Shown: piece after piece, positions 10,517 through 45,672 of the stretch
Layout of the letters: every line of letters starts with the position of its first letter
Position numbering within the stretch: the stretch's first letter is position 1
Source: a virus
Strand: one strand, 5' to 3'
Length of the DNA stretch: 64,000 nucleotides
IMG/VR virus record: IMGVR_UViG_3300031251_000967
Location: 1 to 64,000 of that record
Notes under the pieces: model-generated
The model's database searches: none
Seen by the model: only the letters and a program-made list of their open reading frames with translations
What the model was told of the DNA's origin: nothing
Program-made: the position numbers and the translations under genes

Positions 10517-11032
10517 TTACGGCGCTCGAGCGCGCTCGCGTCGCTGCCTCGCCTCAATCACCACGCGCCTGTTCTTCGATTGATCCGCCGCTGGGATCCA
10601 GCAGCAGTTGTCCGGCTCATAGTTCCCGTTCACGTCCTTGCGCTCGAGCGTGTAGCCCGGCGGGCACGGCCCCATGTCAGCAAGGAACGCCTCGAAAGAA
10701 GCTGACCACGCGTCGCACATCGTGATGCCTCGAGCGCCGTAGTGCACGCGGCTCTTGTCGTTCGGATTGAAGCAGCGGCCCTTAGCGGCCGACCATGCTA
10801 TGTATTCGCGCGTCCCGAACGCGCCGTGCTTCGTGTTGAGTTCGACCATACGTCGCCGTCGATGACAGCCACAGCTGACCGTCCCCCCGATAGTGAGGTC
10901 TTTCGTCCTCACTGTCTTTTCGGCCCCGCACTCGCACCGGACCATCCAGCCGCCGCTATTCGGCAACTTGACGCGATGCAGAACAGTGAGCTTCCCGAAC
11001 GTTTGACCGGATAGATTCAAAGCTCTTGGCAT
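10517..11032 (-). CDS. HNH homing endonuclease
   Basis: LSGQTFGKLTV, CECG, SCGC, YGARGI, TLERKDVNGNYEPDNC. Confidence 0.9.
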   Translation of the reverse strand: MPRALNLSGQTFGKLTVLHRVKLPNSGGWMVRCECGAEKTVRTKDLTIGGTVSCGCHRRRRMVELNTKHGAFGTREYIAWSAAKGRCFNPNDKSRVHYGARGITMCDAWSASFEAFLADMGPCPPGYTLERKDVNGNYEPDNCCWIPAADQSKNRRVVIEARQRRERARAP

Positions 11033-11069
11033 GTGCTAATTATAGCACGCCCAGTCGGACCAGGGAATG

Positions 11070-12314
11070 CTAAGCGACTTCTCTCGGCCAACTTACCCAG
11101 TCAACATGCGCTGTTGGCTTCGGCTCCTCAGCATATACTGGCCAGTGTGAGGTGATCCCGATCCTCTCATGCACGAACCAAAGGGCTTGCCGTGGCGCTT
11201 CGGGCGGCGCGCGCAATGCCAGCTTGGCGAATTCATCGTAACCTTTTAGGGATCCGTTCACTATTACTCTGTCGAGCGGGATGTATTGGTGCCAATGCCC
11301 GAGGAGCAAAGTATCATATGGCTGACCTACCGCGCTATTGCTTGATCTTATCTTCAAATCTCCGCGCAAAATCGGTCCTAGGCTCCCAATTATGCCATCG
11401 CCCCCTTTGACGCCGAGATTGTCTCCGTGCGTCAGGAGGAATCTGCGACCGGCAACGGTATAATAAGCGTCCGCTCCTGAAGGGATATGAAACTGAACTC
11501 GCCGGTCGCTCGCAAAATGCTTCTCGAGAAGGCAATAGAGAAGCCAGTCAAAGTTGGAGAAATTCCGGTTCTTGAAGATCGGCTTCACCGTGTTTCGGCC
11601 GTGATTCCCCGCCACACATGGCACGAAGACGCGTCCAAACTCATCGGCTAGCGCCGTCAACGCCCATATCAGCACGCCGAAAAGATCGAGGAGAACCGGC
11701 ATGGTCGGCATCTCGTTGGTTTCGCGCAGTTCCTGGTGCAAATCACCGCTGACAAGATCGCCGCCCAAGTTCACGACTATTCCGGGCATCGCCACGCCTG
11801 AGGCGTGCAGCCGCGCGAGATAGATCGTCTTCTCGATGACCTTGCGAAGCCGACGTTGCGCGATGGCGATGCTGTATTCGTTGACGCCGTTCAATTGCGC
11901 CCCATCTACGACCTCGCCCCAATGGAGGTCGGAGAGGAACAGGCAGGGCGTCCCCACGCCGTCTGCCGAATGATGCTCGAGCAGCCAGCCCGGCGGCTCC
12001 GGCGTCATCTCCTTCAGCCCGAGGATGTGCTTGCGGACCACGGCCGCCGTCAGGTTGTCGCGATGCACCGCGGCGAGTTGCGACCGCAGCTCGCGCACCT
12101 GATCGGAGAGTGATAGCTTGGTCTGCTGCCACTCGGCGTTTTCCTCGATCGCCCCGGCGGCGATGCCCTCTCGTTCGGCTCGCTTCAGCCAGCCCTCATA
12201 GGTCTGGCGCTTCACGCCGAGTTGGCTCGAGGCCACTTCGGTATTCGGCTCGATCGCAGCGAGGTTGACGGCGCGCTGCAATTCCGCTCGAGTGGCGGGA
12301 GAGCGGCGGGTCAC
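11070..12314 (-). CDS. Calcineurin-like metallophosphoesterase with N-terminal HTH and coiled coil
   Basis: SDLHWGE, GGDLVSG, GNHGR, HGD, GHWH. Confidence 0.85.
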   Translation of the reverse strand: MTRRSPATRAELQRAVNLAAIEPNTEVASSQLGVKRQTYEGWLKRAEREGIAAGAIEENAEWQQTKLSLSDQVRELRSQLAAVHRDNLTAAVVRKHILGLKEMTPEPPGWLLEHHSADGVGTPCLFLSDLHWGEVVDGAQLNGVNEYSIAIAQRRLRKVIEKTIYLARLHASGVAMPGIVVNLGGDLVSGDLHQELRETNEMPTMPVLLDLFGVLIWALTALADEFGRVFVPCVAGNHGRNTVKPIFKNRNFSNFDWLLYCLLEKHFASDRRVQFHIPSGADAYYTVAGRRFLLTHGDNLGVKGGDGIIGSLGPILRGDLKIRSSNSAVGQPYDTLLLGHWHQYIPLDRVIVNGSLKGYDEFAKLALRAPPEAPRQALWFVHERIGITSHWPVYAEEPKPTAHVDWVSWPREVA

Positions 12315-12565
12315 TTGCTCGCCTCAATCTTCTTGGTCTGCGCCTCTACTTGCTTGAGTTGCGCTGCGATCAGCTTGTTATGGAGATACCGACCCCGAAT
12401 TAGGAGCCAGAGCGCGATGATGCCCCCTACCCCGGTCAAGGCATTCAGAGGCGAGCTTATGAACTGCTGCCACCAGGAGTAGGCGACCCCGCCGAGCGCT
12501 ACCGCGACTTGGGCGAAGAACACGCGAGGCTGCGACGAAGCGTAATGCACGAAGGTCTCAGCCAT
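12311..12565 (-). CDS. Holin-like small membrane protein
   Basis: Two TM segments, basic C-terminus. Confidence 0.55.
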   Translation of the reverse strand: MAETFVHYASSQPRVFFAQVAVALGGVAYSWWQQFISSPLNALTGVGGIIALWLLIRGRYLHNKLIAAQLKQVEAQTKKIEASK

Positions 12566-12806
12566 CGTTACCCACCCCTACGCGCGGGGTGGAGAAATCT
12601 GTTGCCTGTCGCATCGTTGCCACACCCATATCCGGGCATGGTGAGGTATATCCGCTCTCTGGCGGAGGGAACGTGCTTGCCATGATGTTGCGTTCCTGTT
12701 GTAGGCGGCATGGGGAGTGCCGCTTGCCCGCCCGATTCAGCGAGCGTTGGCCGGTTGCAGCTTTTGTGCTACCCTGTTGATCTGATTTTATTTCTGGTCA
12801 GCAGCC

Positions 12807-13172
12807 ATGAAGATCGACGCGCAAGTCTACCCGGCGCTTTCCGCACCGGTTCACCTGAAGACCGTTATCGTGTCACAGGGCGATACAGCCTTCCCGCCGG
12901 GCGCCGAATGGTGCTACGCGAGCGCCCGAGACGTTTACGCTGACGAGCGTATCCCGCAGGGTAGCGAGCCGCAGCTTGGGCTTCTCGGCTATCTGTACCA
13001 CTCGCCGCTTACCGGCCCGTGCTTTCTTCTCGAACTCGGCCCCGGCACTCCCGCCGAGGGGCTGGCGTCTCTGAAAAGCCGAGCGGACTTCGGGAAGTGT
13101 GAATACTTCGCCCCGCAAAGATGGTTCGGAACGTACACGGCGGATGTTCATAACGTTGCGCTTCTATGCTAG
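12807..13172 (+). CDS. Hypothetical moron protein
   Basis: 121-aa ORF opposite to late genes. Confidence 0.55.
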   Translation: MKIDAQVYPALSAPVHLKTVIVSQGDTAFPPGAEWCYASARDVYADERIPQGSEPQLGLLGYLYHSPLTGPCFLLELGPGTPAEGLASLKSRADFGKCEYFAPQRWFGTYTADVHNVALLC

Positions 13173-13211
13173 ACTGTTGATCTTCTTGGATTGACAGGTC
13201 GGCAGGGCATA

Positions 13212-13550
13212 ATGAGCTTCGTAGCAACGCCAGAATTGCAAGAGCGGGTTTCTCGAATGATCGAGGGGCAAGCGGAAGCCAGTCCTCCGACGGCCAAATG
13301 GCTCGCGGAAGAAATCTTGAAGTTGGTCGAGAGCGTCGCCGCTTTTCAGGAATTGTTGGCCGACGACGATTTCCAGCAAACACGCGCCACGCTTCGATCG
13401 GCCACGATATTAGCTGGCGGCGAGATCCGCATCCCCGCCGATCACATGGCGCAAGCCCGCGCCGATGGTTGGGGAACCCGTATTGTCGTCAGCAAAGATC
13501 AAGGCACCGACGAAACAGTTGTGCGCGTTGAGCGGGCGGAGCAGCGGTAA
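13212..13550 (+). CDS. Hypothetical moron protein
   Basis: Coupled (TAATG) to next ORF. Confidence 0.6.
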   Translation: MSFVATPELQERVSRMIEGQAEASPPTAKWLAEEILKLVESVAAFQELLADDDFQQTRATLRSATILAGGEIRIPADHMAQARADGWGTRIVVSKDQGTDETVVRVERAEQR

Positions 13551-13837
13551 TGGACGAGAGGGAACCGATGACGCCGGAAGAGTCGGCCGCTGTCGAAGCG
13601 GTTAGGGCGCAAATCGAACAGGCGATTTCGGATTGCTTGGCTCAAGGGCCGCTCACCGCTGAAGAGTTGGCGGCCTCAGCACAGAAGCGGCTCGACGAGA
13701 TTTTCCCGGTCAAATGGGAGGATCACATCGACGTGTCGCAAGAGGGCAGCACGCTTAAGCTGACCCCGAAGACCGACTTCGGCCGACAGATGATGGTCGA
13801 CGCTAGAATGCTGCCGCCGCCGCTGCCGATCGACTAG
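13550..13837 (+). CDS. Hypothetical moron protein
   Basis: GGAG RBS, 1-bp overlap. Confidence 0.6.
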   Translation: MDEREPMTPEESAAVEAVRAQIEQAISDCLAQGPLTAEELAASAQKRLDEIFPVKWEDHIDVSQEGSTLKLTPKTDFGRQMMVDARMLPPPLPID

Positions 13838-13856
13838 ACGATTACGATTTAGAGGG

Positions 13857-14045
13857 ATGGCCGCTGATTCCTCCCTCCTCCTCTCTTCCCAAGGACATTC
13901 ACCGATGCAGACCGCGCTCGACGAAAGAGCGATACGACAGCGCGAGAAAAAGTGGTTCTTTCTCGGAATCCTTATGGGGCTCAATATCGCGAATTACGCA
14001 GTTATCGCCATCGTCGTCGTGAAATACGGGCTTTTAGCCGAGTAG
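13857..14045 (+). CDS. Small membrane protein
   Basis: C-terminal TM helix. Confidence 0.5.
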   Translation: MAADSSLLLSSQGHSPMQTALDERAIRQREKKWFFLGILMGLNIANYAVIAIVVVKYGLLAE

Positions 14046-14065
14046 CACCGCCTCGTCATCCGCCG

Positions 14066-14548
14066 TCAGGGGATGGTGACGGAATCCGTCGGCCACGATC
14101 CTTGACCAGCCAGCGCAAGGCCGAGTTGGTACAGGTGATCGCGGACAGCCGAATACACGGCCTTGATCTGCGCTTCCGTGAACACCTTGGGCGCGCCGGT
14201 CGCGTCGGGGTACGCGAAGGTCGATCCGCCACCCGGAAAGCCAAGGCCGGCGCCGCAGTCCACCGCCAGTGCGCGGATCTGGTCGAGCGTCACCTTGTCC
14301 AGCGCATACGTTGCTGAGATGGACGGCGATCCCGTAGAGGTGATCTGGAGTCCTGCCGCTATTGCCGTATCGTACTGCTGCTGCGGTGTTGGTCCGGATG
14401 CGGCGACGATCTCCGCCCATGTCGGCTTGGCCCGCGTATCGAACCAGTCGAGCGCGTCGTAAGCCGCTTCTGTATTGTCCGTCACCGACCCGAAATACTG
14501 CGCTCCGGGAACGAGTTGGTCGAGGACCGATGCAACGTCAATGGTCAT
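14066..14548 (-). CDS. Tail fibre assembly-like protein (XkdW/DUF4376-like)
   Basis: LDWFDTRAKPTWAEI; position after tail fibre. Confidence 0.7.
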   Translation of the reverse strand: MTIDVASVLDQLVPGAQYFGSVTDNTEAAYDALDWFDTRAKPTWAEIVAASGPTPQQQYDTAIAAGLQITSTGSPSISATYALDKVTLDQIRALAVDCGAGLGFPGGGSTFAYPDATGAPKVFTEAQIKAVYSAVRDHLYQLGLALAGQGSWPTDSVTIP

Positions 14549-14670
14549 GACGATTTCCTCTGAACGACGGCGTAACTTCCTGCCGTCAGCGTCATCTGGT
14601 TGGAGCCAAGCAATTCCCCTTCGCGATCCGGAAGTTGCGGAACGCTTTTGAGATCACGGGTGCGCCACAT
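14545..14670 (-). CDS. 41-aa mini-ORF paralogous to part of the tail fibre
   Basis: MWRTRDLKSV...SNQMTLTAGSYAV vs fibre WRTRDLNTKV...SNQFTLPAGQYLV; ATGA overlap. Confidence 0.55.
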   Translation of the reverse strand: MWRTRDLKSVPQLPDREGELLGSNQMTLTAGSYAVVQRKSS

Positions 14671-14672
14671 GG

Positions 14673-15359
14673 CTATGCGATCTTCCTGATTCCGAGGTAG
14701 CTGTAGACTTCAGGGCCGAAGTTGCAGGCGAAGCCGAACCCGTTCCCGGTCTGCGAGGCCGTGCACTGGTGCTGGAGCTGGATCGTCTTGGTTCCGGTCA
14801 GTGTAAACGCCCCTTCGATCACGGATGACGTCTGAATGAAATCAGTCGCACCGCTGCCGGACGCGTTCTCCGATGATCCCGAAACAAGAAGTGCACCATC
14901 CGTGACGTTCCAGAGCCGCGCCTGATGTGGATCAACGTTTACCGCCGGAGCCCTGCCAGTTACCAGATATTGCCCTGCTGGCAGCGTGAATTGATTTGAA
15001 GACAGCGTGCAGATACTTGCGGTATCGAGCACCTTCGTGTTCAAGTCTCGGGTGCGCCATGCTCCGGAGGAGAACGTTCCGCCCGCCGTGTTCTGTGTCT
15101 TCTGGTCCTGAAGAATAACCAGCGGTCGCACGTAAAGCTGATTCAGCGCCGCGAGAAGCTGGGCGCGATTTGTCTTGTCGAGAGCAATGCCCGCTTGGGC
15201 GATGACTGCGACAATCTCCTCCTGCACGGCGTTCGCCCAATCGGCGGTAACGATCGTCGGCGTGACGCCCGTGCCGTCTTGGAAGTACCCGCTTGTGGCG
15301 CCGAGCGCGGCGGGCGTCGGAAGGGATGCGGACACCCCAGAGCTATCGATGCGGAACAA
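14673..15359 (-). CDS. Short tail fibre protein (228 aa)
   Basis: TTG start with AAGGAG RBS; PTIVTADWANAVQEEI...QLLAAL Mu-type fibre N-terminus. Confidence 0.85.
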   Translation of the reverse strand: MFRIDSSGVSASLPTPAALGATSGYFQDGTGVTPTIVTADWANAVQEEIVAVIAQAGIALDKTNRAQLLAALNQLYVRPLVILQDQKTQNTAGGTFSSGAWRTRDLNTKVLDTASICTLSSNQFTLPAGQYLVTGRAPAVNVDPHQARLWNVTDGALLVSGSSENASGSGATDFIQTSSVIEGAFTLTGTKTIQLQHQCTASQTGNGFGFACNFGPEVYSYLGIRKIA

Positions 15360-15370
15360 GGTTCTACTCC

Positions 15371-15967
15371 TTACGTGTAAGAGAATTTGACAGTGGTGTG
15401 CGCGGGAGCCCTGGCGTTGATCGAGCACTCCAGCGGAGCGTTGCCGAAGCTTGTGAGGGGATCGCCGACCGCTGAGACGCCGACGCGGAAAGACGTCACG
15501 GTCGTGAGCGGGGCATTGATCTGCCAGACGTGCGCCCAGCCCGCCCCATACAGGGGCTGACCAACGGCGAGCCGCCCGACTCTTGCCGGCGCGAACTGCG
15601 TGATCGTGATCGTGTAGCCGAGCTTCGCCGCTTGGGCGATGAACGATGCCGGCGTCGGAGAATCCGTCGCCGTCAGCCGGGCGACGACCTGTCCGCGCCG
15701 GCCTTGGAGAGTTTGCGCCGGCCCGGCACAGGGATCCGGAAGCCCGAGGGTCTTTTCCCACTCCGGCAGCAGTTCGTACGTCGTCGTCGGAAACGCGTCG
15801 ACCAGCAGATAGTTGGCCCGGTCGTTCACCCGTGCGAAGGTGGGCGCGAACCCAGACAGCGTCTCCGTCTGGATTGCGTCGCTGTCCCGTGGCCAGATGC
15901 GGCCGATTGGGAACAGCCGCTGGAGCAGCGCGAGGTAATCCGCCGCTGAGAAAGACGGTGCCAGCAT
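15371..15967 (-). CDS. Baseplate protein, Mu gp48/YmfQ (DUF2313)-like
   Basis: LLPEWEKTLGLPDPC, LECSINARAPAHT. Confidence 0.9.
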   Translation of the reverse strand: MLAPSFSAADYLALLQRLFPIGRIWPRDSDAIQTETLSGFAPTFARVNDRANYLLVDAFPTTTYELLPEWEKTLGLPDPCAGPAQTLQGRRGQVVARLTATDSPTPASFIAQAAKLGYTITITQFAPARVGRLAVGQPLYGAGWAHVWQINAPLTTVTSFRVGVSAVGDPLTSFGNAPLECSINARAPAHTTVKFSYT

Positions 15968-15971
15968 CAAA

Positions 15972-17096
15972 TCATGTCCAAGTGATCGTGCCGAGTACTG
16001 GCAGCGACCCAACAGGAATTGAGATGTTGGCGTTAGGCACCGAAATCACGAAGCCTGCGGATCCCGGAACGGCACCTATGGCGCTTTCGATATAGGACAG
16101 ATCGACGACACCGCCCTTGGCAGAGCCATATTGCAGGAGCACACCCGCTATGGCAGATGCCACCGCCGACTGAACCGCAGACCCAGCCGTCGAGAGTCCG
16201 CTGATCGTAAAGTTTATCGCCTGTGGCGTCGGTGCCGCCGCATAGACGAGCGCCGTGACCGGTTGCCGTGTGGGCGCAAAGAAATAGTTGGCGACGGTAA
16301 GTTGGTCCCCTGTGGCCGCCGTATCTCGCGTCTCGCCCGTCGCTACGCCGAATGTCCCTTGCGGGAAGCCGTTATGCGCCGCCTGAGCAACGTCCATCAT
16401 GAAGTACACGACGACCGTGCCCGGCCCCATGCCGTTGCGCACGCACCACGCGCGGGTGACGCCGGAGACCTCTAGCGCCCATTCCTCATAGTCGCTCGGC
16501 GCTCCACCCTGCGGCGGTTGCGCGTAAGCCTTCAGCGTGCGCGACCGCAGGCTGTCCATCGTCTCCAGATCGGCACCGCCGGTGAGTGCAGTCGTCGCGG
16601 TGCCGTTCGCCTGAATGCCCGCAATGGCCTGCGCCAGCGTCATCGCGGTTCCGGCGTTCGTGTTGCCGAGCGAACCCGCGGCGTCAGCAATGACGGAGAC
16701 CACTACCGTTCCGCCGACGGAAACCGTACCGTCGGCCGTCGTGGTGTAGCTCGCGCCGTCACCGCGGGCGATGGGGGTGCCGGCAGGAAGGACAGTCCCT
16801 GCTACGCCGTTGAAGGTCACGGCGTTTGTGCCGGACGCAGGGGTCGCCGGCTTCAGCGTAACGTTCTTAAGCGCTGCCCAGCCGAGCAGGTATTCGTCGG
16901 TAGCTGTCCAAGGAACCGCCTGCCGCGCGATCCAGTCGATGTAGCCGAACACGAGGTTGATGAGGTTCGCGAGAACCTTGCCGATGATGCCGAGGTTTGA
17001 GAACCGCAGCAGCGGATCAGAACCCGGCAGCGCGGCCGAAATGTCCTGTGCGGTCTGTTGCTTGAGAACCTTCAGCGTCGGGCGAGCGAAAGGCAT
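15972..17096 (-). CDS. Baseplate J/gp47 protein
   Basis: GGADLETMDSLRSR...PPQGGAPSDYEEWALEVSGVTRAW. Confidence 0.93.
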   Translation of the reverse strand: MPFARPTLKVLKQQTAQDISAALPGSDPLLRFSNLGIIGKVLANLINLVFGYIDWIARQAVPWTATDEYLLGWAALKNVTLKPATPASGTNAVTFNGVAGTVLPAGTPIARGDGASYTTTADGTVSVGGTVVVSVIADAAGSLGNTNAGTAMTLAQAIAGIQANGTATTALTGGADLETMDSLRSRTLKAYAQPPQGGAPSDYEEWALEVSGVTRAWCVRNGMGPGTVVVYFMMDVAQAAHNGFPQGTFGVATGETRDTAATGDQLTVANYFFAPTRQPVTALVYAAAPTPQAINFTISGLSTAGSAVQSAVASAIAGVLLQYGSAKGGVVDLSYIESAIGAVPGSAGFVISVPNANISIPVGSLPVLGTITWT

Positions 17097-17097
17097 T

Positions 17098-17697
17098 TCA
17101 GCGGATCCCCTGCCAAGCCCAATCGAATTTCAGCGTGGATTGCGCGCCCTTTGCGGGCTGATACACGGTGATCCGCGCCCCGAGCATTCCGGGGCGCGTC
17201 CACTCGGCGTAGATGTCGATCGACCCGGCGACGCCGTCGTCGATCATCCATTGCAGCGCTTCGGCCATGTATTCCTTGGCCCGCGCCAGCGTTTCGTCAG
17301 TCTGCTTCGCCCGATCCAGCAACCAGAGCCGCGAGCCGATCGGGTAATCTTCGTCGAGATCGCCGAGCCAGCCGCGCCGGTCGTTGGTACCATCCGGAAT
17401 GACATCGTCTGGAAGGGCGGAACGGTCGGTAAAAAGCGAGATGAGAAGGGCGGTCGGCAGGTCGTTTCCGGCCGCCAGATCCGCTTCGTCCATCGCCCAA
17501 TCGCCGCGGCCGTTGGCAACGTCCCAGATCGTCGCGATGTCGCTCTGCCGCCCCACGATAGAGAAGGACGGCGACGATGTCGGAGAACCGCCGCCTCCCA
17601 CAACGACCGTGGTCGACGTGGTCGAAAAGTCGAGAATGAGGCGGTCGCCGCCCAGCGACAGGAAGTCGCCGGACGTGTCGAGAAGGTAATCCGCCAT
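17098..17697 (-). CDS. Mu gp46-like baseplate protein with N-terminal extension
   Basis: LPTALLISLFTD, RRGWLGD, IGSRLWLLDRAK, EALQWMIDDGVA. Confidence 0.9.
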   Translation of the reverse strand: MADYLLDTSGDFLSLGGDRLILDFSTTSTTVVVGGGGSPTSSPSFSIVGRQSDIATIWDVANGRGDWAMDEADLAAGNDLPTALLISLFTDRSALPDDVIPDGTNDRRGWLGDLDEDYPIGSRLWLLDRAKQTDETLARAKEYMAEALQWMIDDGVAGSIDIYAEWTRPGMLGARITVYQPAKGAQSTLKFDWAWQGIR

Positions 17698-19832
17698 CAG
17701 TGCCACACGCGGACGTAGTCAACGTCCATCGGCCAGTTCGTATCGGTGCCGAGGATCACCGGCATGTGGTGGGCATCGCCGACCGAGTAGGTTCCGCCCT
17801 GCGACCACGTCGTCGTGCCGATCAAGTTGCCGTCGAGGTAATACTTGACGTATCCCGAATTCGGCGTGGCCGTCGCCGGCTTCCACGCGGCGCCGAAGAC
17901 GTGCCAGTTGCCATCGGAAGCCCCTTCGGCTGTATGCAGGTCCTGCGTGCCGCCGGGCCAATCGTGAGTGGTCGCTCCATACGCGGTCGCCGACCCGCCG
18001 AAGTTCCACATAAGGAACTCCATGAAGTCGGACTCGAACCACCGCGTGCCGTTGCCCCCGAACAGGTGCTCCGCAGACATCGTCCAGAAGGACGGCCACC
18101 CTCCGGTGCTGCCGCGGGTCGAGGCGTTGAAGCGGATGCGCGCCTCGAAATACGCTCCTCCGCCTTGCGCGAAGCCCTGCCAGCTCGACCCGCTGGAGCC
18201 GACCGTCGCGATAGAGTAGTTCGGCCCCGTGCCATCGCATTTGATGGTGGCGTACCCGTTCTGAACGGAGACGCACGACCCGGAGAGCGCGGACCAGCCG
18301 AACGGCCGGTCGAAGTACCACTTGAAGCCAGCGGCGCGGGTGCCGTTGACATCGAAAGTGCTGATCGAATCCATCTCGTCGTCGAAGACGAGATTGGTGA
18401 AACCGGCCGCCACCGCAGCGGGCGGCGCGGTGATCGTCGAGGACGGCGGCGGGGACGTACTGCCACCGCCGCCGCTGCTCTTCAGCGCATTGCCGACGAC
18501 ACCGGCGATCTGGTCGCCGAGCCACGGATAACCCACCGTGTCGTTCGGGTGCAGGCCGTCCGCAAGGCCAGTTGACGACGGGAAGTTGCTGCTGTCGTCG
18601 ACCAGATAGACGTGATAACTGGACGAGGACCGCGCGGAGATGACTGAGCCGACGCCCGCGTTGAACCCGCTTTCGTCGACCGCCATGGATCCGGTGCGCG
18701 GCAGCAGGTTCGAGACGACGATGTACGCGTTCGGTACCTTGCCGTGGATGGCGTCGAGGAGGACGCCCATCCGTGTCAGAAGTGCCGACGTGCCGCCGCT
18801 CGTGTAGCTGGCATAGGCCGGCGCGTTCTTGGCCCCTGAGTACCCGGAGTTGTCGTTCGTGCCGATCTCGACCACGACGACGTTCGGGTTGGACGCCAGG
18901 ATGCTGGGAGAGGCGTTGACCTTGTCGATGAGGTCGTCGACGCCCTTGCCCGGATAGCCATCATGGCTGTAGGTGCCGTCGGATTGCGTCCCGACATACG
19001 TGACGGTGATGCCGGACTGCGCGAGCTTGGTCTTGAGTTCCGGGCGATAGCTCAGCCCCGCGCCGCCCTGCCCCGCGGTAATGCTGTCGCCAAGCCCGGC
19101 GACGGTAATCGAGGTTAGCGCGGGAGTCCCGGTGGCGTTGTTGGCGACGGTCAGGCTCAGCGGGGCGGACGCCGAATGCGTCGGCTGTTGGTCTGGCGAA
19201 GCGCCGCCGTTGATCCACGCCGCAACGTCCCACGCATTGACCGAGAGCGAGTTCGGGCCGTTCGGCAGACCGTTCGTGTCGTAGGAGAGCGTGACGAGGC
19301 CGCTCGTCCCGGCCGGCGCACCGCCCGCCAGCTTCTTGTTCGTCGAGTCCCATAGCTCGACGTTCAGCATCCCCGGCGCTTGCACCGAGAACTGCGTGAT
19401 GCCGGTGACGGTCGCCCCGGAAGCGGGGGAGAGAACGGAAACCGTGTACTGGGCCGGGGCAGGCGTTGCGAGCGCGGTTCCAATGGTCGCGATCGGCGCC
19501 CACAGCCCAGGCGTGCCGGCCTGAACGTTCACCCACCCGAGAGGCGCACCGGTGGCCGGGCTTGAGTTGTAGATGATCGTCCCGACCGAGTACGTCCCGA
19601 CCGACGGCGGCGCGGACATAGAGGGCGGAGCGAAATTTTGCCTGATCGACGAGAGCGGCGTCTGGACGAGCGTCTTGACGCCGCCGATCGTCTGCACCGT
19701 CAGAACGGTTTCCGTCCCCTGAAGCGCTGCGGCCTGATTCAGGTTCAGCACGGACGTGTCGGCGCGTGCCGTTACGTTCGCGCTCAGCGCGCACGCCAGC
19801 AGCGCCGCCAGACCAAGCAATCTGCGGATCAT
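17697..19832 (-). CDS. Signal-peptide protein with Ig-like, SGNH hydrolase and GH16-like domains
   Basis: MIRRLLGLAALLACALSANVTARA; GDSIT/GTND/DGLHP; WPSFW and ESDFME (ExDxxE). Confidence 0.85.
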   Translation of the reverse strand: MIRRLLGLAALLACALSANVTARADTSVLNLNQAAALQGTETVLTVQTIGGVKTLVQTPLSSIRQNFAPPSMSAPPSVGTYSVGTIIYNSSPATGAPLGWVNVQAGTPGLWAPIATIGTALATPAPAQYTVSVLSPASGATVTGITQFSVQAPGMLNVELWDSTNKKLAGGAPAGTSGLVTLSYDTNGLPNGPNSLSVNAWDVAAWINGGASPDQQPTHSASAPLSLTVANNATGTPALTSITVAGLGDSITAGQGGAGLSYRPELKTKLAQSGITVTYVGTQSDGTYSHDGYPGKGVDDLIDKVNASPSILASNPNVVVVEIGTNDNSGYSGAKNAPAYASYTSGGTSALLTRMGVLLDAIHGKVPNAYIVVSNLLPRTGSMAVDESGFNAGVGSVISARSSSSYHVYLVDDSSNFPSSTGLADGLHPNDTVGYPWLGDQIAGVVGNALKSSGGGGSTSPPPSSTITAPPAAVAAGFTNLVFDDEMDSISTFDVNGTRAAGFKWYFDRPFGWSALSGSCVSVQNGYATIKCDGTGPNYSIATVGSSGSSWQGFAQGGGAYFEARIRFNASTRGSTGGWPSFWTMSAEHLFGGNGTRWFESDFMEFLMWNFGGSATAYGATTHDWPGGTQDLHTAEGASDGNWHVFGAAWKPATATPNSGYVKYYLDGNLIGTTTWSQGGTYSVGDAHHMPVILGTDTNWPMDVDYVRVWH

Positions 19833-19856
19833 CGGTAGCCTCAAGGTTCGGTAGGG

Positions 19857-20417
19857 TTATTCTTGCTCGTTCGGCACTTCGGTATTGATCGTGCTGGAGC
19901 CGGTCTGGACGTTCTTCACCTGATGGTGGTGCCCGTCGTAGATCGTCCTCATGCTCTGCATGCTGCGCGGCGTGGCCGCATCGCAGCGGTCGGTAATGTC
20001 GCCGGTGACGAACAGGTTCGCGGTCTCCATCCGGACACTCGGCGTATCCGTGATCTTGATCGGCAGGCCGCCCCCGTCGATTACGATGCCCGACCGCGTC
20101 AGGTGAACCTTTTGACCAAGGTCGTCATGGACTGCCGCCTCACCGTCGGCGAGGTGTAGCCGGTAGCGCTGGTCGCCGGTAGCGATGACGACGCCGCTCG
20201 ACCGGTCTCCAGAGATGAATAGGGCGACGGCATCCGCGCCGGGGTGCGGGCGGGAGGTGAACCCGTACTCGGCAAGCCGCGGTGTGCCGTCCCGCACCTC
20301 GTCGGCACCAAGCCGAATCTGCACGATCTGCACCGCGCCGGAATCGTCGGTCGTGGTGATCCGCCCGCGGCCGATCGCCATCATCAACCTTCGATAGATC
20401 CGGTCGACAATGTCCAT
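19857..20417 (-). CDS. Baseplate spike, Mu gp45/gpV
   Basis: EYGFTSRPHPGADAV, GEAAVHDDLGQ, terminal YDGHHH. Confidence 0.92.
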   Translation of the reverse strand: MDIVDRIYRRLMMAIGRGRITTTDDSGAVQIVQIRLGADEVRDGTPRLAEYGFTSRPHPGADAVALFISGDRSSGVVIATGDQRYRLHLADGEAAVHDDLGQKVHLTRSGIVIDGGGLPIKITDTPSVRMETANLFVTGDITDRCDAATPRSMQSMRTIYDGHHHQVKNVQTGSSTINTEVPNEQE

Positions 20418-20457
20418 TAATCTTCGCCTTCTCAGTTCACTCGGTCAGGGGTTCCCG

Positions 20458-21156
20458 ATGCCGTCGAAACTCATCATCACCCTCGCAGCGGTGCTGGTCT
20501 GTGCGGGATGCGCGCCCGACCGTGAGGCGGCACGAGCGCAATACTTCGCGCAGCGTCAGGCCGAGGAGCGCGCCCGCGAAGAAGCCGGAGCAGCGCGGCG
20601 ACATGCAGAAGAACAAGCTCGGCAGGATGCTCTTGCTGCTAACGAGCGGGCGGCGGCCGAGGAACGCGCGCGGCGCGTTATCCAAGACCAGCGCGAACAG
20701 GAGCAGCGCGAAGCCGATCAGCGGGCAACCGCCGAACAAAAGCTGGTCGCCGCCCGCGTGGAAAAAGAACGCGGTTACAAGCGGATGTCGCTTGGCGATT
20801 TTCTTGTCGACTGGCGCGACATGCCGACTGGCACCCACGTTTCCGTCACTGCCCTACACACCTTTGCCGGATCAGTGAGCGTTCTATCCACGGGCGTGCT
20901 AGGGAACCCGATTGTCGTCTTGCTTACCGATGGACTCCCGCGCCAGAGCCGAAAGATGCTTTTGGACTGCCACGCCTACAATACGTGGTGTCGCATTCGC
21001 ATCCGCGGTCGAACCGGATGTGCCGCGACCAGGGACGGTATTCCTTCAGGCGAGGCGTGCCTTATCGCTGAATCTGTTGCCGATAACGACGAGCCAAGCC
21101 CATATGCCCCGGCCCGGGTCCACTACGATCTGCCGGACGGCAGGAGGAATCCTTAA
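20458..21156 (+). CDS. Lipoprotein moron
   Basis: Lipobox VCAGC, coiled coil, C-terminal globular domain; antisense to tail operon. Confidence 0.7.
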   Translation: MPSKLIITLAAVLVCAGCAPDREAARAQYFAQRQAEERAREEAGAARRHAEEQARQDALAANERAAAEERARRVIQDQREQEQREADQRATAEQKLVAARVEKERGYKRMSLGDFLVDWRDMPTGTHVSVTALHTFAGSVSVLSTGVLGNPIVVLLTDGLPRQSRKMLLDCHAYNTWCRIRIRGRTGCAATRDGIPSGEACLIAESVADNDEPSPYAPARVHYDLPDGRRNP

Positions 21157-22538
21157 CTCGCGAGGGCGCGGAACGACGTCGGCATGAAGCCCGGATGCAC
21201 CACGTCCGCTTCGGCAATCAGCTCATCCGCCCGCGAGGCGTCCTGATAGAGCTTCATGGCGATGAGCGGCGCCGGCAGCGGCGCGGCGAAAGAAACCGTG
21301 ATGACGCGTGGAAGCCCGGCCCCGCGGGCATTCATGTCGGCGACCACCGCCGCCTTCAGCGCCCGGAAGGCTGAGAACACCGAGTCCTCTCCCTGATCGC
21401 CCGCCGTATCGATCTCGGCATCAAGGAGCGTCACCACCGCATCTCGTACCGTTGCCGCGTCATCCTGGCTTGCCGGCTGATAGGCTGCTGTCGCGCGTGC
21501 CAGCGCAGACACCGCCGCGCGCCGCCACAGGTCGGAAGTCGCGGATTGCGCGGTCGCGACCGATGCCGACCCCTGAGACACGAGCGGAACGAAGGTCGCG
21601 AGAACTTGAAAGATCCGAACCCGGTCGGCGGGATCCGATGTGGCGCTTCCGAGCGTCGCCATCACCGCCTGAGCCTTGGCCCCCAGATCGGCAGTCGTGC
21701 TGGCACTCAGCGACGCTGCCGAGGACTGCGCCGCTGATACAGCCGCCGTCGCATTCGCCCGCGACTGCGCGCCTGACGCGATCAGGTCGGATACCGTTTT
21801 CGGTGGCTTGCTTGTGGCGGAACTATCCCCGGTCACGCCCAGAAGCGTCGCGGACGCACCATCGAAGAACCGCCCGAACTCTCCTGGAAGCGCCTGGACA
21901 GTCCGAAAGAGAGACGTGGCGTCCGCAACCAGCGAAAACGCCTGCCCGCCATATTGCTGAACCGTGCCTACCACGGACTGCACGACGGCAGCCCCTTGCT
22001 GAAGCGCTGCCGCTATGCGGCTGCCGAAGCTGTCTGCGGCTGCGCTATCGGCATCGTCGGCGGCGGCAAGCGTCTCCTGCGGGGTTGCGGTGATGGAAAC
22101 CGGGTAGATGCGAGGCGTCGAGTTGACGAACGAGAATTCCAACTCGGCGAACCGGCCCTCGATCGTATGCGTGATCGCAAAATCAAGAAGTGAAAACCGG
22201 TTGCGGCCGAATTGAGGGTGGACCAGTTCTCCGCCCTGGTCATCCGAATCCCGCTGCTGACATACCGCCGCCATGCGCTTCGACTGCGCAATGACGTCGT
22301 CGCCGAGCAGGAACCCGACGATGTGGATGACCTGCCGTCCACGGCCGAGGTCTTCGACCCATGGCGCGTCGCGGTTCGGATAGTCGTGAACCACGTTCCG
22401 CCGGCCGAAGCGCGCCCGCGAGGTCGTGACGCCGAACGGCACGCCCTTCCATAACGCAGACTGAAGCTGCCCACGGTAGGACAGCCCAGCGGCGCCGAGA
22501 AGCGCGCTGACGTCGTTGATGAAGCTGCCGATCGTCAT
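21153..22538 (-). CDS. DNA circulation protein (Mu gp43/gpN-like)
   Basis: WKGVPF...GRRNVVHDYPNRDAPWVEDLGR; LYQDASRADELI...HPGFMP. Confidence 0.92.
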   Translation of the reverse strand: MTIGSFINDVSALLGAAGLSYRGQLQSALWKGVPFGVTTSRARFGRRNVVHDYPNRDAPWVEDLGRGRQVIHIVGFLLGDDVIAQSKRMAAVCQQRDSDDQGGELVHPQFGRNRFSLLDFAITHTIEGRFAELEFSFVNSTPRIYPVSITATPQETLAAADDADSAAADSFGSRIAAALQQGAAVVQSVVGTVQQYGGQAFSLVADATSLFRTVQALPGEFGRFFDGASATLLGVTGDSSATSKPPKTVSDLIASGAQSRANATAAVSAAQSSAASLSASTTADLGAKAQAVMATLGSATSDPADRVRIFQVLATFVPLVSQGSASVATAQSATSDLWRRAAVSALARATAAYQPASQDDAATVRDAVVTLLDAEIDTAGDQGEDSVFSAFRALKAAVVADMNARGAGLPRVITVSFAAPLPAPLIAMKLYQDASRADELIAEADVVHPGFMPTSFRALAS

Positions 22539-22539
22539 C

Positions 22540-23664
22540 TCAGTACGGCCCCGCGTTCAGGAGAGGCGTAATCGGCACGGGCAGCACATCGAACGCCGCC
22601 GCCGGCATAACGGTCAGCTCGGCCGCCGTTCCGCGCTCGTCACGGCGGAACATCACGGAGCCGATGACCCATTCCGTCTGGCTCGCCGCCGCGGCGTTGA
22701 CCTTGAGCGTCGGGATCCGGATCGGGATGATGGTGTTAGGCGTCCAGAGGTTTCCGGAGCCGTCCCGCCAGCTATCTACCGTGACGTGTATCTGCGTCGA
22801 CCGGCCGAACCGCCGGCTCGCTTCCCACTCTCCGCGCGCCCGCGCGTAATCGTCACCCATGCCGGCCGGTGTTTCGGCAATGATGTATTTCGGTCGGAAC
22901 CGTGGCACGCCGCCGTCTTGAATCGTCGCGACGATGTCGCCTTCGGGGTTCGCCCCGCCGTCCGCGAACGGCGAGAACGTAAGCCGGCGCACCCGATATT
23001 GGCTGTAGCGGTCGTGCATGCTGTACTGCACGCTCGCTTGCTGGATGTTCGCGCCCTCGACGACACCCGTCGACATGCTCCCGTTTCCGACGCGAGACAG
23101 GACGAGGTTGCCGTTCGCGTCCTCATAGACGAGGAGAGCCGCAAACCGGGCAATGCGCTCGATCAGTTCATAGGGCGTCTCGCCCCACATGATGACGAGC
23201 TGCGGAACCACCCGCTCCTCTCCGCTCAATTGTGAGACGGAGATTCCGAAGGGCTTGGCGAGGCTCTGCGCGATCGTCAGAACCGACTGGTTGTTGAACT
23301 GCCCCGTGGACCAGACAGCGGAGCAATCAACGAGGTCCTGCCCCCTGCCCCGGCCGACGATGCGCAACGAGTGCTGTGACGCGCTCAACCCCGGCGTAAC
23401 GCTATCGATGTAACCGGACACGACAAGATCGCGGCCGAGCCCACGGGTGATGAACACTTGGCACGGATCGCCAGGGCGCACCGGAACGTCGATGGTCGCG
23501 CTCGGATACCGCTCCGTAGCCACGATCTCGAAGACGGACGGGAAGAACTCGCACGACCGCTGAATGCGGACGCTCTCCCACCCGCCTAAGTCGTAGATAC
23601 TTGACCGGTTGAGCGGGGTTTCCGTCTGGTACGGGCCCACCCGGATAACGACATCATCATCCAT
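22540..23664 (-). CDS. Baseplate hub (Mu gp44/gpP-like)
   Basis: GWESVRI, DLVDCSA, GETPYELI, WRDGSGNLWTPN. Confidence 0.92.
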   Translation of the reverse strand: MDDDVVIRVGPYQTETPLNRSSIYDLGGWESVRIQRSCEFFPSVFEIVATERYPSATIDVPVRPGDPCQVFITRGLGRDLVVSGYIDSVTPGLSASQHSLRIVGRGRGQDLVDCSAVWSTGQFNNQSVLTIAQSLAKPFGISVSQLSGEERVVPQLVIMWGETPYELIERIARFAALLVYEDANGNLVLSRVGNGSMSTGVVEGANIQQASVQYSMHDRYSQYRVRRLTFSPFADGGANPEGDIVATIQDGGVPRFRPKYIIAETPAGMGDDYARARGEWEASRRFGRSTQIHVTVDSWRDGSGNLWTPNTIIPIRIPTLKVNAAAASQTEWVIGSVMFRRDERGTAAELTVMPAAAFDVLPVPITPLLNAGPY

Positions 23665-23673
23665 GATGGGCGC

Positions 23674-25239
23674 TTACGGGTTAACCGCGCCGGTCGGCAT
23701 GCTGTAGTGAACGCGCACCGGAGCGAAGGGAGAACTGCTGTTCGCAGAGACCGAGGAACCGGCCGGGGTCGTCACATGCACGTCGACCCGCGCGTTCTGC
23801 CCCTGGCCGCCCGATCCACCCTCGGCCATCGCCGCCTTGATGGCCTGCGCATACTGCTCTGGCGTGAACGGCTGCTTTCCCTGCTCCTGCTTGACGATCG
23901 CCGAAAGGATCGAAGCGTTCGTTTCCTCGCTGCCGTCGATCGGCGCGTTCGGCAGGATGCCGGTTCGCTCGGAGACCTTGCGGATGTAGGCTTCGGTGTC
24001 GTTCTCGTTGGCGGGAGCCCATCGGCCGACGATTCCCGAAACCGTGTTGATGCCGTGCTTCCGCTCGTAGGCGATCAGATTCCGCGCTGCCGCGTTCAGG
24101 CCGTCTTCCGGGCTGGCGTAGGTCTGGAACGCATTCTGCCCCGGCACGCGGAGATTGCCGGGGTTGTTCCGCTTGATCCCGCTCGCGCCGAGCAGATCGA
24201 CGCTGGCGGCCGTTGCCGCGCCGGTGACACCGCCGACGATCGCGCCGCCGAGCGCACCCGGCCCGGCACCGATGCCGCCGAACAAAGCGCCGATGCCGGC
24301 CCCCGTAGCCGCGCCGGCCGCCGCGCCGCCAGCCGCACCACTGAGGATCACGCCAAGGTGAGCGAGTGGCCCAAGCGACTGCGTCGCCTTGTTCGCCCTC
24401 TCCGCCAGATCGCCGAGCCAGTCGACGATCTTCTTGAGACCGGGCGCTAGGATCAGTTCCGCGTTCTCCGCCGCGCCGGTCATGTTCTCGCCGAGCTTGG
24501 AGAGCGACTTGCCGAGAGATGATCCGGCATCCGCCGCAGCCCCTGCGTTCGGGCGGAACTGCGCAGCCGAGTTCGTGAGCTGGTCCATATTCTCGACGAG
24601 CCGCCGGATATCCTCCGGCTGGCCAAGGGCGTTCAGGATGGCGTTCTTGCCCTGCACCGTCGGAGCGCGCTCAAGAGCCCGCGCCAGGTCGCGGTAAGCC
24701 GACGCCACGTCCGCTTGGCCGTTGGCGTCGTACTTGGCGCGGATGCCGAGCTGGGCGAAGTAGCCGGCCATCTGAGGATTGCGGCCCGACAGCACGTCGC
24801 CGATGTTCTTCGCCATCGCGGACGCGCCCTGCGTCGCCGTCTCACCCGACAAGCCGCCAAGGCGAGCCGCCGACTGGAAGCGGGCAAGCTGGTCCGCGCC
24901 GATCCCGATCCGGTATGCTGTGTTCGTCGCCTGCAAGCCCATGTCCGCCCACTGCCGCGTGAGCGCGGCGAGACCAGACACGGTGCCGATACCGGCCAGC
25001 GATCCGGCAGCGCCGCTGACAGATCCGAGCTTGTCCAACATCGCGTTTGCAGCGGTGCCGGCCGAACTCAGCGACTTCGCAACCTTATCGAGCCCGGTAT
25101 CCTTGCCGATCTTGGACAGCACGTCCTGCGTGTTGCGGATCGGCTTCGTGAACTTCTCAACCGCCGCGGTGACCTTGTTGATGATCGCCGACGCGTTGTC
25201 GGCGGCGGTGATGTTGATTGCAAAAGCGTTCGCCATCAC
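23674..25239 (-). CDS. Tape measure protein with C-terminal lysozyme-like domain
   Basis: Ala/Gly helical body; RNNPGNLR...RWAPANENDTEAY. Confidence 0.88.
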   Translation of the reverse strand: MMANAFAINITAADNASAIINKVTAAVEKFTKPIRNTQDVLSKIGKDTGLDKVAKSLSSAGTAANAMLDKLGSVSGAAGSLAGIGTVSGLAALTRQWADMGLQATNTAYRIGIGADQLARFQSAARLGGLSGETATQGASAMAKNIGDVLSGRNPQMAGYFAQLGIRAKYDANGQADVASAYRDLARALERAPTVQGKNAILNALGQPEDIRRLVENMDQLTNSAAQFRPNAGAAADAGSSLGKSLSKLGENMTGAAENAELILAPGLKKIVDWLGDLAERANKATQSLGPLAHLGVILSGAAGGAAAGAATGAGIGALFGGIGAGPGALGGAIVGGVTGAATAASVDLLGASGIKRNNPGNLRVPGQNAFQTYASPEDGLNAAARNLIAYERKHGINTVSGIVGRWAPANENDTEAYIRKVSERTGILPNAPIDGSEETNASILSAIVKQEQGKQPFTPEQYAQAIKAAMAEGGSGGQGQNARVDVHVTTPAGSSVSANSSSPFAPVRVHYSMPTGAVNP

Positions 25240-39344: not shown

Positions 39345-39358
39345 CTATCGCTGTCCGT

Positions 39359-40120
39359 TCAGGTGATTGAGAACGTGTCCCCGGAGGCCGGGGCGGTGGT
39401 CAGAGCGGTAACCGTGAGCGTACCGGAACCATTGGTCGCCGTGATGTCCGTCGACTGTGAGCGGAGCGCGGGCGTCGTGGTGTCCGCGTCGAACGTGATG
39501 ATTTTCCCCTTGAACTGCGAGGCGACGCTGTCAGAGGGGGTAAGCGCGCTGGTCGGGATTGAGGTCGTTGTCGCACTCGCGCCGACCGTGCCGCGGCCGA
39601 TGGCCCTGGTCGTCTTGGCGAGGTTCGCCGCTGCGGTCGCGTCACCGTTGACGGCACTTAGGTTGGACGCCACGCGGAGGTTGGAGTCGAGCGCGGGCAA
39701 CCCGCCGTTCGCGCCGGCAGCCGCATTCGGGAGAGCGGTCGGGGCGCCGACACCCCGAATGGCATCGCTCAGCAGGACGAGGATCTTCTGAGGGGCGACA
39801 TTGTTCGAGCCTGCGTCCTGAACGCTGAACTCAACCCAATCCGCGCCCGCCGCCAGCGCGGCATTGGGCACGCCGAATTCGTAGAGCCCCTTGTCGTTGG
39901 TGGAGTCTTTCTCCGCGAAGCCGCCGGAGGACCACGTGCCGCGAGTACCGGACGAAAGCGTCACGGCCGTCGCGCCCGCATTCCCCTGATCGGGCCGCGA
40001 ATAGGCGATGGTCACTGACCCGTTGGTCAGGCCGGTCTTGTACGCACCCGTGGTCGAGGACGTGTCCTTGATCGCGACGGGCAGGATGAAGGACGTTTTG
40101 CCCTGCGGGACAATAAACAT
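39359..40120 (-). CDS. Virion accessory structural protein
   Basis: Thr/Gly/Ala-rich; GLYEFGVP; ALTTAPASGDTFSI C-terminus. Confidence 0.7.
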   Translation of the reverse strand: MFIVPQGKTSFILPVAIKDTSSTTGAYKTGLTNGSVTIAYSRPDQGNAGATAVTLSSGTRGTWSSGGFAEKDSTNDKGLYEFGVPNAALAAGADWVEFSVQDAGSNNVAPQKILVLLSDAIRGVGAPTALPNAAAGANGGLPALDSNLRVASNLSAVNGDATAAANLAKTTRAIGRGTVGASATTTSIPTSALTPSDSVASQFKGKIITFDADTTTPALRSQSTDITATNGSGTLTVTALTTAPASGDTFSIT

Positions 40121-41295: not shown

Positions 41296-41301
41296 CTTTC
41301 G

Positions 41302-45663: not shown

Positions 45664-45672
45664 GGAAAGTGC

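Follow-up and report, generated by a model that had tools for sequence, protein, structure and literature searches.

Among the closest described systems, the gp63.1 protein of phage G7C is reportedly a tail-associated SGNH esterase that serves as a receptor-binding protein and docks via an adaptor, gp66, and Pectobacterium phage Possum is reported to possess a deacetylating tail fibre (PMC9569702). Rhizobial ExoK is a secreted GH16 succinoglycan depolymerase acting on acylated exopolysaccharide, and exported products of tail-region morons (lambda Lom and Bor, T5 Llp) act at the envelope, their genes having a promoter and terminator of their own and often lying on the other strand or differing in composition. 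SGNH esterase fibres, accessory receptor-binding proteins docked through adaptors, secreted GH16 enzymes, and signal-peptide-bearing carbohydrate-active enzymes (CAZymes) of soil prophages are all already known, and every tail-associated depolymerase or modular fibre adaptor described is, to our knowledge, assembled in the cytoplasm. Here, we analysed a 64,000-nucleotide (nt) stretch of viral DNA (IMG/VR record IMGVR_UViG_3300031251_000967, positions 1 to 64,000; hereafter the window), in which a gene for a 711-residue SGNH–GH16 enzyme with a predicted signal peptide stands between the baseplate genes gp45 and gp46, with gp46 bearing an N-terminal extension (the arm). We regard this enzyme–arm arrangement as real and unusual, and the enzyme as possibly a tail-associated depolymerase with a new assembly route.

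The window derives from a rhizosphere metagenome and carries on its minus strand a lambda-like head module and a Mu-type contractile-tail module, the phage being an integrated temperate element adjoining tRNA genes. An earlier sequence-only reading of this DNA had the enzyme gene coupled to gp46 through TGATG, and this overlap of stop and start is indeed seen in the sequence. In 90 related loci, the median distance from the gp45 stop to the gp46 core is 6 nt versus 2310 nt in the window, and so large an insertion at this junction is unusual. Moreover, an N-terminal extension of gp46 was found in none of 80 viral loci and, apart from one protein (P0006), in none of the other top gp46 homologs, and no trace of the arm appeared in the 28 loci that a gp46 scan of genome contigs brought up. 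Apparent gp46 matches over query residues 5–198 in eight loci (L001–L006, L016, and L020) proved to be an artefact, tblastn having read in frame through the gp45 stop, and the genes concerned are canonical. The whole window holds exactly one arm and one matching N-terminal module; at 38073–46340, in particular, neither of these nor a peptide tag is present. As the enzyme/gp46 junction is bridged by identical contigs from other, independent rhizosphere metagenome runs, it is not an assembly chimera; a joint of 18455 to 20560 with a 20-nt side was weak, occurred in one contig only, and was disregarded. The G+C content of the enzyme gene (0.64–0.66) equals that of the flanking genes, no sigma-70-like promoter was found across 14000–23800, and no promoter-like site, nor any terminator-like site on the minus strand, was found within 17000–20500. 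Judged by its own promoter or terminator, separability, and atypical composition, the enzyme gene does not look like a moron cassette.

Other loci show occasional insertions at the same place, the gp45–gp46 gap exceeding 400 nt in about six of the 90. Homologous, helical-looking open reading frames (ORFs) of about 135 residues lie between the two genes in L077 (5595–5996) and L092 (7544–7960), and L102 has a reverse-strand gene at this junction. In L069 (5062–6387, on a contig shared with L137), gp46 has the canonical start MSDTTTVWDP followed by an internal insert of about 300 residues ahead of the conserved core, from which it follows that the wedge protein tolerates large inserts, and in L079 (670–1350) it ends in a 76-residue extension resembling a bacterial immunoglobulin-like domain (…TVELYRDGVLVGTAVADASGAWSL…).

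The position of gp46 between gp45 and gp47 fits a Mu gp46 or gp25/W-like wedge protein, and its best named relatives come from the Alphaproteobacteria and Burkholderiales. With 199 residues, it exceeds nearly all of the best 120 of 4275 homologs (147–149 residues) by about 50 at the N-terminus, and the alignment with PHROG 180 (‘baseplate wedge subunit’) covers residues 52–198 only, which bears out the earlier claim of an extension of this size, with a linker, before the usual start. Here, the Met codon of the relatives is replaced in the window by CAG (Gln), the frame stays open, and the nearest GTG lacks a ribosome site, for which reasons we take the extension to be translated. This arm recurs in a single other gp46, P0006, which is 62–67% identical and keeps the L-L-D-x-x-G-D-x-L...G-x-x-L-x-L pattern together with a P-T-S-S-P stretch, while the rest of its extension diverges. 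Four further close relatives of gp46 (P0004, P0025, P0092, and P0118) have C-terminal extensions of 20–35 residues with ends like …LD…(S)G.(L)L….

The start of the enzyme gene is marked by a GAGG (19842–19839), 6 nt on the 5′ side of an ATG that lies 24 nt past the gp45 stop, and this context argues that the signal-like N-terminus is translated; TTG 19844 is a poorer alternative. The leader reads MIRR / LLGLAALLACALSA / NVT-A-R-A, then Asp25, and by rule it has the positive n-region, an h-region of 10–15 residues (here 14, rich in Leu and Ala), and the small residues at −3 and −1 that are typical of a Sec substrate of signal peptidase I. The enzyme is thus predicted to be exported and cut after Ala24, in agreement with the Sec-type signal peptide and AxA site first noticed in this gene of about 711 residues. 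As a Tat signal (RR-L-L-G) or as a lipoprotein signal (a weak lipobox-like LLAC within the h-region), the leader fits less well than as a Sec substrate of signal peptidase I, and neither feature recurs in the other leaders of the type-A proteins described below.

Directly behind the predicted cut stands what we call the N-module, consisting of an L-N-Q-A-A-A-L-Q-G-T-E-T-V..Q..V-K motif and then a small G-W-V..G-T-P-G-x-W domain. Matches to it came from the C-terminal part of PHROG 21471 and from a tail-fibre PHROG (23059), and its neighbours in the ESM Atlas are exclusively viral (0.92 by features, and template modelling (TM) scores of 0.53–0.59 by structure), including N-terminal models of the tailspike and T7-tail-fibre type, so that the resemblance to phage fibre N-termini claimed before stands. 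It also aligns with the N-termini of two signal-peptide proteins (L040:9590 and L077:8331) and with those of fibres that have no signal peptide. Only two full-length relatives of the enzyme were found (P0001 and P0002; 40–42% identity), and these keep the SGNH–GH16 cassette behind a fibre-like N-terminus with no signal peptide. Because these two and several N-module proteins lack a signal peptide, export is, on comparison of the sequences, an add-on feature and not intrinsic to the N-module.

As for the catalytic part, the SGNH domain lies above the Pfam cut-offs (50.5 bits versus 32.9 for PF13472, and 30.9 versus 23.6 for PF00657), and its blocks, the Ser block GDSIT, GTNDN, and the Asp-x-x-His block DGLHPN, are invariant between the enzyme, P0001, and P0002, in accordance with the SGNH blocks reported earlier. 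The sole solved chain matched, and hence the nearest, is a ‘lipolytic enzyme’ (PDB ID: 2vpt; 4.7e-9), which we take to be an esterase of carbohydrate esterase family 3 (CE3). The last 243 residues gave no direct match to Pfam PF00722, even at E 10, nor to any PDB sequence. They belong, though, to a family with at least 885 homologs, 21 of 40 sampled members of which match Pfam GH16 (PF00722; best 1.4e-12), and the profile of this family matches 62 GH16 sequences in the PDB (best 1.4e-16), placing ESDFME on the catalytic EIDIM of 4crq. The residues E132, D134, and E137 of the E-x-D-x-x-E motif are invariant or nearly so among 40 family members. An AlphaFold2 (AF2) model of the domain (predicted local distance difference test (pLDDT) 93, predicted TM score 0.92) gave in Foldseek only GH16-fold, beta-jelly-roll chains among the top PDB matches listed (E ~1e-10, probability 1.00). 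By profile, predicted fold, and conserved E-x-D-x-x-E, the C-terminal domain is therefore a true but divergent GH16 domain, as the motif had suggested. Its nearest relatives (P0125, P0127, P0129, P0130, and P0133; 55–61% identical) are proteins of the secreted bacterial type with signal peptides of their own or a carbohydrate-binding module. The Ig-like domain proposed between the N-module and the SGNH blocks has a Big_7 match (E 0.0023), which is weak and below the Pfam cut-off, and so it stays a possible one. Two Cys of the window GH16 domain are absent from P0001 and P0002.

Scanning IMG/VR with the enzyme or gp46 as single sequences gave no match. Megablast and tblastn searches of 50,697 phage records, with the region and the enzyme as queries, gave no relative either, the sole match being to a tail protein of an Arthrobacter phage over a motif of 45 residues. 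A search of viral and metagenome contigs with the enzyme alignment returned remote SGNH domains only.

Peptides like the gp46 arm were found on baseplate proteins of other phages, where in five loci they accompany the same kind of N-module (type A). Arm-like units are carried at the C-terminus of gp46 in L040 (LATETGALLTTENGTLITI) and L094 (IDDETGSGIVDETGSLILD), and at that of gp48 in L077 (DLTTESGLALTTEAGGFVTVES) and L049 (LLLEDGLTFLLTEDGRTIATE). In L040 and L077, a signal-peptide protein continues directly with the N-motif of the window enzyme (L-P-A-A-x-x-L-x-G-x-E-x-V...Q...V-K/R), and in L042, L003, and L147, fibres with this motif and no signal peptide stand again in loci with arm-like extensions. 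In all, an accessory fibre with the N-module and an arm-like terminal peptide on a baseplate protein co-occur in five of five loci. When any gp46/gp48 extension and any signal-peptide fibre-like ORF were scored in the 75 loci with enough flank, related loci being counted as independent, eight loci had both and 51 neither (12 extension only, four fibre only; odds ratio 8.5, p = 0.0018). In L094, a prophage of a Desulfosarcina metagenome-assembled genome, the baseplate genes with the tagged gp46 are followed by three consecutive signal-peptide ORFs (10702–14792), one with CBM5/12, one of no known family, and one with a right-handed beta-helix.

An analogous pair with other motifs (type B) is present in L012, L041, and L069, in which gp48 ends in G-x-L-D-x-x-F-x-L-D-x-S-x-L and the extra fibre begins with a signal peptide followed by QF-T-P-G-x-V-LTAAQLN. 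An IMG/VR scan with the type-B fibre N-terminus gave 23 loci (L121–L143) with the mature end QF-x-x-G-x-(I/V)-LTA-x-x-LN, and in all 23 fibres the conserved sequence starts right behind an A-x-A-type site, while the Lys/Arg-plus-hydrophobic leader is variable. Conservation that starts at the cut, next to a freely varying leader, is characteristic of signal peptides that are cleaved, signal-peptide calls being rule-based throughout this work. The tag (L-D-x-x-F-x-L-x-x-S-x-L) ends an ORF, one residue before the stop, in 21–22 of the 23 loci; in L140, which is one of two exceptions, a comparable peptide lies close to the N-terminal end of a different ORF. Its carriers belong to at least six unrelated families, including Mu gp48, DUF2612, a Pam3-gp18-like plug, and a wedge-subunit PHROG, and the tag gene mostly adjoins the fibre gene, with the pairing kept in six loci where the two are 2–4.5 kb apart (L130–L132, L135, L141, and L143). 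Among 121 loci gathered irrespective of this feature, the tag-by-fibre table was 3/1/0/117, with both present in three loci and neither in 117 (p = 1.4e-5), with tag and N-module motifs that for both types were defined post hoc. Moreover, 19 distinct tag DNAs differ at a near-saturated proportion of synonymous sites (pS 0.79) and a far lower proportion of nonsynonymous sites (pN 0.34), the key Leu, Asp, Phe, and Ser being kept via different codons, which argues that the tag is conserved as a peptide and not as a site for DNA recombination. Type-B pairs also occur in the cultured, obligately lytic Burkholderia phages Bcep781, Bcep43, Bcep1, and BcepNY3. In Bcep781 (L150:4543–7007; NC_004333.2), the baseplate-plug-like gp50 ends in LDIDFVLDKSILG, and the fibre gp49 has a Sec-type leader and then the conserved QFAPGQVLTAAQLN; in GenBank, gp49 carries the remark ‘possible tail fiber; possible signal peptide domain’. 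The signal-peptide fibres of L041 (8261–10303) and L069 (8186–9574) share a conserved Cys pair (…MPSCS…F-x-C…) soon past the N-module, which may hint at the formation of a periplasmic disulfide.

The reading that we favour, tentatively and with a confidence somewhat short of probable, is that of a depolymerase, accessory in role, that is exported and docks on the arm of gp46. Accordingly worded, the enzyme would be an accessory, two-enzyme depolymerase of a temperate phage with a Mu-type tail, accessory and not the sole receptor-binding protein because a canonical short tail fibre is present as well (14673–15380). It is made from the late baseplate operon with a ribosome site of its own and in coupling with gp46, and it would be exported by Sec and cut after Ala24, whereby the N-module would be exposed as the mature N-terminus. 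The arm, displayed in several copies at the baseplate rim, would be the docking peptide for this mature N-module. Since the tag sits on a protein assembled in the cytoplasm and the docking end is made by cleavage, the two could meet only outside the cytoplasm, unless the leader goes unused: at lysis, as the compartments mix, or later in the medium or on cells. Joining at lysis would be one of several ways for an exported protein and a cytoplasmic baseplate to meet. Together, the SGNH O-acyl esterase and the GH16 endo-glycanase would deacylate an acylated beta-glycan on the host surface or in its periplasm and cleave it internally, with exopolysaccharide, capsule, and O-antigen as candidate substrates, and until it meets the virion the exported enzyme would also clear polysaccharide around the dying cell. 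Docking by the arm gains indirect support from the type-A co-occurrence and from the near one-to-one type-B pairing under protein-level constraint. More broadly, export-signal fibres paired with a baseplate peptide recur in many phages, which hints that one part of the virion may be attached only after leaving the cytoplasm. In the widest form of this proposal, which we ourselves find doubtful, many proteobacterial tailed phages, from Mu-type prophages to the lytic Bcep781 group, would share a two-part attachment system made up of a tag and a fibre or enzyme that is exported by Sec and cleaved. Part of the machinery for host recognition would in this case reach the virion outside the cytoplasm, upon lysis or afterwards, or else serve as a soluble bridge from virion to cell. 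The tag would here be grafted on whichever baseplate protein serves, and the conserved docking motif would be the new free N-terminus. A literature search, which did not cover the 2006 Bcep781 genome paper, found the pairing of signal-peptide fibre and baseplate tag undescribed, the only trace being the GenBank note on gp49.

Several points weigh against this reading. The docking claimed for the arm stood insofar as arm-like peptides accompany N-module fibres elsewhere, whereas the exact pair of gp46 arm and enzyme N-module is an instance of presence with presence in a single case (n = 1). Export and cleavage of the enzyme, the binding of tag to module, and the association of the enzyme with virions are all things we infer from sequence. 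The type-A definitions were post hoc, applied to small numbers of related loci with short flanks, and the 75-locus count includes the 12 loci with an extension and no signal-peptide fibre and the four with the reverse. Likeness among the type-A N-modules is at the level of motifs, BLASTP of the enzyme N-terminus against L040:9590 being not significant. The AF2 model of gp46 (pLDDT 54 overall, and about 39 with no secondary structure for residues 1–52) is too weak to inform. We know of no tailed phage that adds an exported protein to its virion, and our literature search turned up none whose tail fibres are described as exported by Sec. Moreover, about 5% of 64,678 soil-prophage CAZymes carry signal peptides and have been read as metabolic cargo (PMC13507307).

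The last of these points leads to the alternative that the enzyme is exported and free, never virion-bound, being released at lysis to cut host polysaccharide so that progeny escape the debris (a receptor-destroying role), or acting as an auxiliary enzyme that releases carbon; the gp46 arm would then serve a different function or have arisen as a side effect of the insertion. The signal peptide and the intact SGNH and GH16 domains agree with this, as do the secreted nature of the nearest GH16 relatives, the precedent of signal-peptide CAZymes in soil prophages (PMC13507307), and the inferential status of virion association. What such an enzyme leaves unexplained is why a fibre-type N-module should stand exactly at the mature N-terminus, why N-modules and baseplate-terminal peptides should keep co-occurring, and why the type-B tag should be conserved at the protein level on virion proteins; the gene is, in addition, translationally coupled to gp46 and no self-contained moron. 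We hold it to be rather unlikely. The opposite departure, a conventional tail depolymerase assembled in the cytoplasm, supposes that the leader is inefficient, overridden by fast folding or docking, or a cause of dual localisation, with the cytoplasmic fraction binding the arm. The N-module does occur on fibres with no signal peptide (L042, L003, and L145–L149), for which assembly must be cytoplasmic, and P0001 and P0002 hold the catalytic cassette in such proteins, though the n-, h-, and c-regions and AxA site of the window enzyme are textbook ones, and in 23 loci and Bcep781 the type-B conserved sequence begins at the predicted cut behind a freely varying leader, making this alternative improbable in our view.

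We give still less credence to lysogenic conversion or superinfection exclusion, whereby the prophage enzyme would remodel the surface glycan of the lysogen and so block adsorption of related phages. It would suit an integrated temperate phage adjoining tRNA genes, exported surface-modifying morons of tail regions such as lambda lom and T5 llp are well known, and an opposite-strand ORF with a lipobox lies nearby (20410–21156). However, the strand of the enzyme gene has no promoter- or terminator-like site, the stop overlaps the gp46 start, the composition is that of the neighbours, and an analogous type-B pair is found in obligately lytic phages, to which the explanation cannot apply. Least credible of all is the view of the gp46 extension as a functionless scar left by the insertion, or as the product of a mis-called start, the true one being a GTG that precedes the core by three codons. 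The arm has hardly any counterpart (a word-based search with gp46 residues 1–56 found only itself) and AF2 gives it no structure; against this stand the change of Met to CAG and the lack of a ribosome site at the GTG, a frame that is open over 51 codons with G+C-rich third positions, the arm pattern and linker that P0006 keeps amid divergence, and the same repeat units on the termini of baseplate proteins in other phages. A decoy receptor, that is, an exported copy of the phage's own fibre, was rejected, the enzyme sharing nothing with the canonical fibre.

Features of the baseplate region and of the enzyme gene in the window, in order along the minus strand
Feature	Position	Strand	Basis
gp44/P, tape-measure neighbour	22540-23664	-	Pfam
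DNA-circulation protein	21153-22538	-	Pfam
gp45, Mu-type baseplate spike/assembly protein, upstream of the insertion	19857-20417	-	Pfam Phage_Mu_Gp45, 6e-26
Spacer of 24 nt between gp45 stop and enzyme ATG, with Shine-Dalgarno GAGG	19833-19856	-	Sequence read
Enzyme gene, 2136 nt, 711 residues, between gp45 and gp46	17697-19832	-	ATG 19832, stop TGA 17699-17697
Predicted Sec-type signal peptide, residues 1-24	19761-19832	-	n/h/c regions read by rule
Phage-fibre-type N-module of the mature enzyme, residues ~27-125	19458-19760	-	PHROG 21471 and 23059, ESM Atlas
Possible Ig-like domain, residues ~130-198	19239-19445	-	Pfam Big_7, E 0.0023, 19 bits versus 24.1 cut-off (weak)
SGNH/GDSL esterase domain, residues 247-431	18540-19094	-	Pfam PF13472 (GDSL_2), 4.5e-13
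Divergent GH16 domain, residues 469-711, ESDFME motif	17700-18428	-	Family profile, fold, motif
TGATG, gp46 start overlapping enzyme stop (translational coupling)	17695-17699	-	Sequence read
gp46 baseplate wedge gene including arm, 199 residues	17098-17697	-	Pfam GP46 and PHROG 180
gp46 arm, residues 1-23, two hydrophobic-acidic-Gly units (YLLDTSGDFL / SLGGDRLILD)	17629-17697	-	Translation
gp46 Thr/Ser/Gly/Pro-rich linker, residues 24-51	17545-17628	-	Translation
Canonical gp46 wedge core, residues 52-199 and stop	17098-17544	-	Pfam GP46 (PF07409), 8.5e-37, 125.6 bits
gp47 (Baseplate_J), next operon gene	15972-17096	-	Pfam, 5e-60
gp48, start uncertain, no terminal extension (C-tail length 0)	~15371-16012	-	Pfam Phage_Mu_Gp48, 2e-33
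Canonical short tail fibre, no signal peptide	14673-15380	-	PHROG tail-fibre matches, N-terminus read

Around the insertion, a tail-fibre assembly protein comes after the canonical short tail fibre. On the other side of the operon, the window has the order tape measure, gp44/P, DNA-circulation protein, and gp45, as against DNA-circulation protein, gp44/P, and gp45 in the related loci, and from this difference it appears that the whole stretch from tape measure to gp46 is rearranged, beyond the gp45–gp46 junction itself. On the plus strand at 20410–21156, between the DNA-circulation gene and gp45, lies an ORF of 248 residues in which an internal Met begins a leader of the lipoprotein type (MPSKLIITLAAVLVCAGC), and the region behind it is rich in Glu, Arg, and Ala; this ORF has no family match and is probably a moron.

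If an exported fibre and a baseplate tag do form a pair as proposed, some tailed-phage virions would be completed after lysis or would make use of secreted adaptors, and the window pair of SGNH–GH16 enzyme and gp46 arm would stand as the first enzymatic case of the two-part system. The prediction of host range from genomes and the interpretation of virion proteomes would both have to change, and a portable tag with an exchangeable secreted fibre could offer a different way of re-targeting phages. The analogous pair in cultured, obligately lytic Burkholderia phages makes the idea directly testable. Even if no docking took place, a bacterial-type secreted GH16 domain joined to an esterase and a phage module in a baseplate operon would be a clear example of the domestication of a host exo-enzyme.

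Set beside G7C gp63.1 and the Possum fibre, the window enzyme is alike in being an accessory SGNH polysaccharide esterase with an N-terminal attachment module and a gene in the tail module, whereas those proteins are not known to have a signal peptide or a GH16 fusion and are reportedly assembled in the cytoplasm. Moreover, the docking partner of the G7C type is a folded adaptor domain, and in the window it would be a terminal peptide of about 20 residues on a gp25/W-like wedge protein. With the GH16 laminarinases ZgLamC (PDB ID: 4crq) and PtLam (PDB ID: 8xph), the enzyme shares the beta-jelly-roll and E-x-D-x-x-E at an identity of only 17–23%, and with secreted GH16 enzymes at large, laminarinases and ExoK included, it shares secretion by a signal peptide (here a predicted one), though it differs in its fusion to an SGNH domain and a phage N-module and in its place in a baseplate operon. 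Like lambda Lom and Bor and T5 Llp, it is a signal-peptide protein encoded beside receptor-binding genes, yet it resembles a virion protein and lacks the promoter, terminator, and composition traits of a moron. The CAZymes with signal peptides surveyed in soil prophages likewise combine a soil or rhizosphere prophage, a CAZyme, and a signal peptide (PMC13507307); that survey left out genes tied by Pfam annotation to tail fibres or baseplates, and the window enzyme differs in being coupled to a baseplate gene and in its fibre-type N-module. With gp50 and gp49 of Bcep781, finally, the locus has in common a peptide-tagged baseplate protein followed by a fibre-like protein conserved from a Sec-type cleavage site onwards, while Bcep781 differs in its C-terminal tag (L-D-x-x-F-x-L-D-x-S-x-L), its N-module (QFAPGQVLTAAQLN), its Pam3-gp18-like plug as carrier, its lack of enzyme domains, and its lytic lifestyle.

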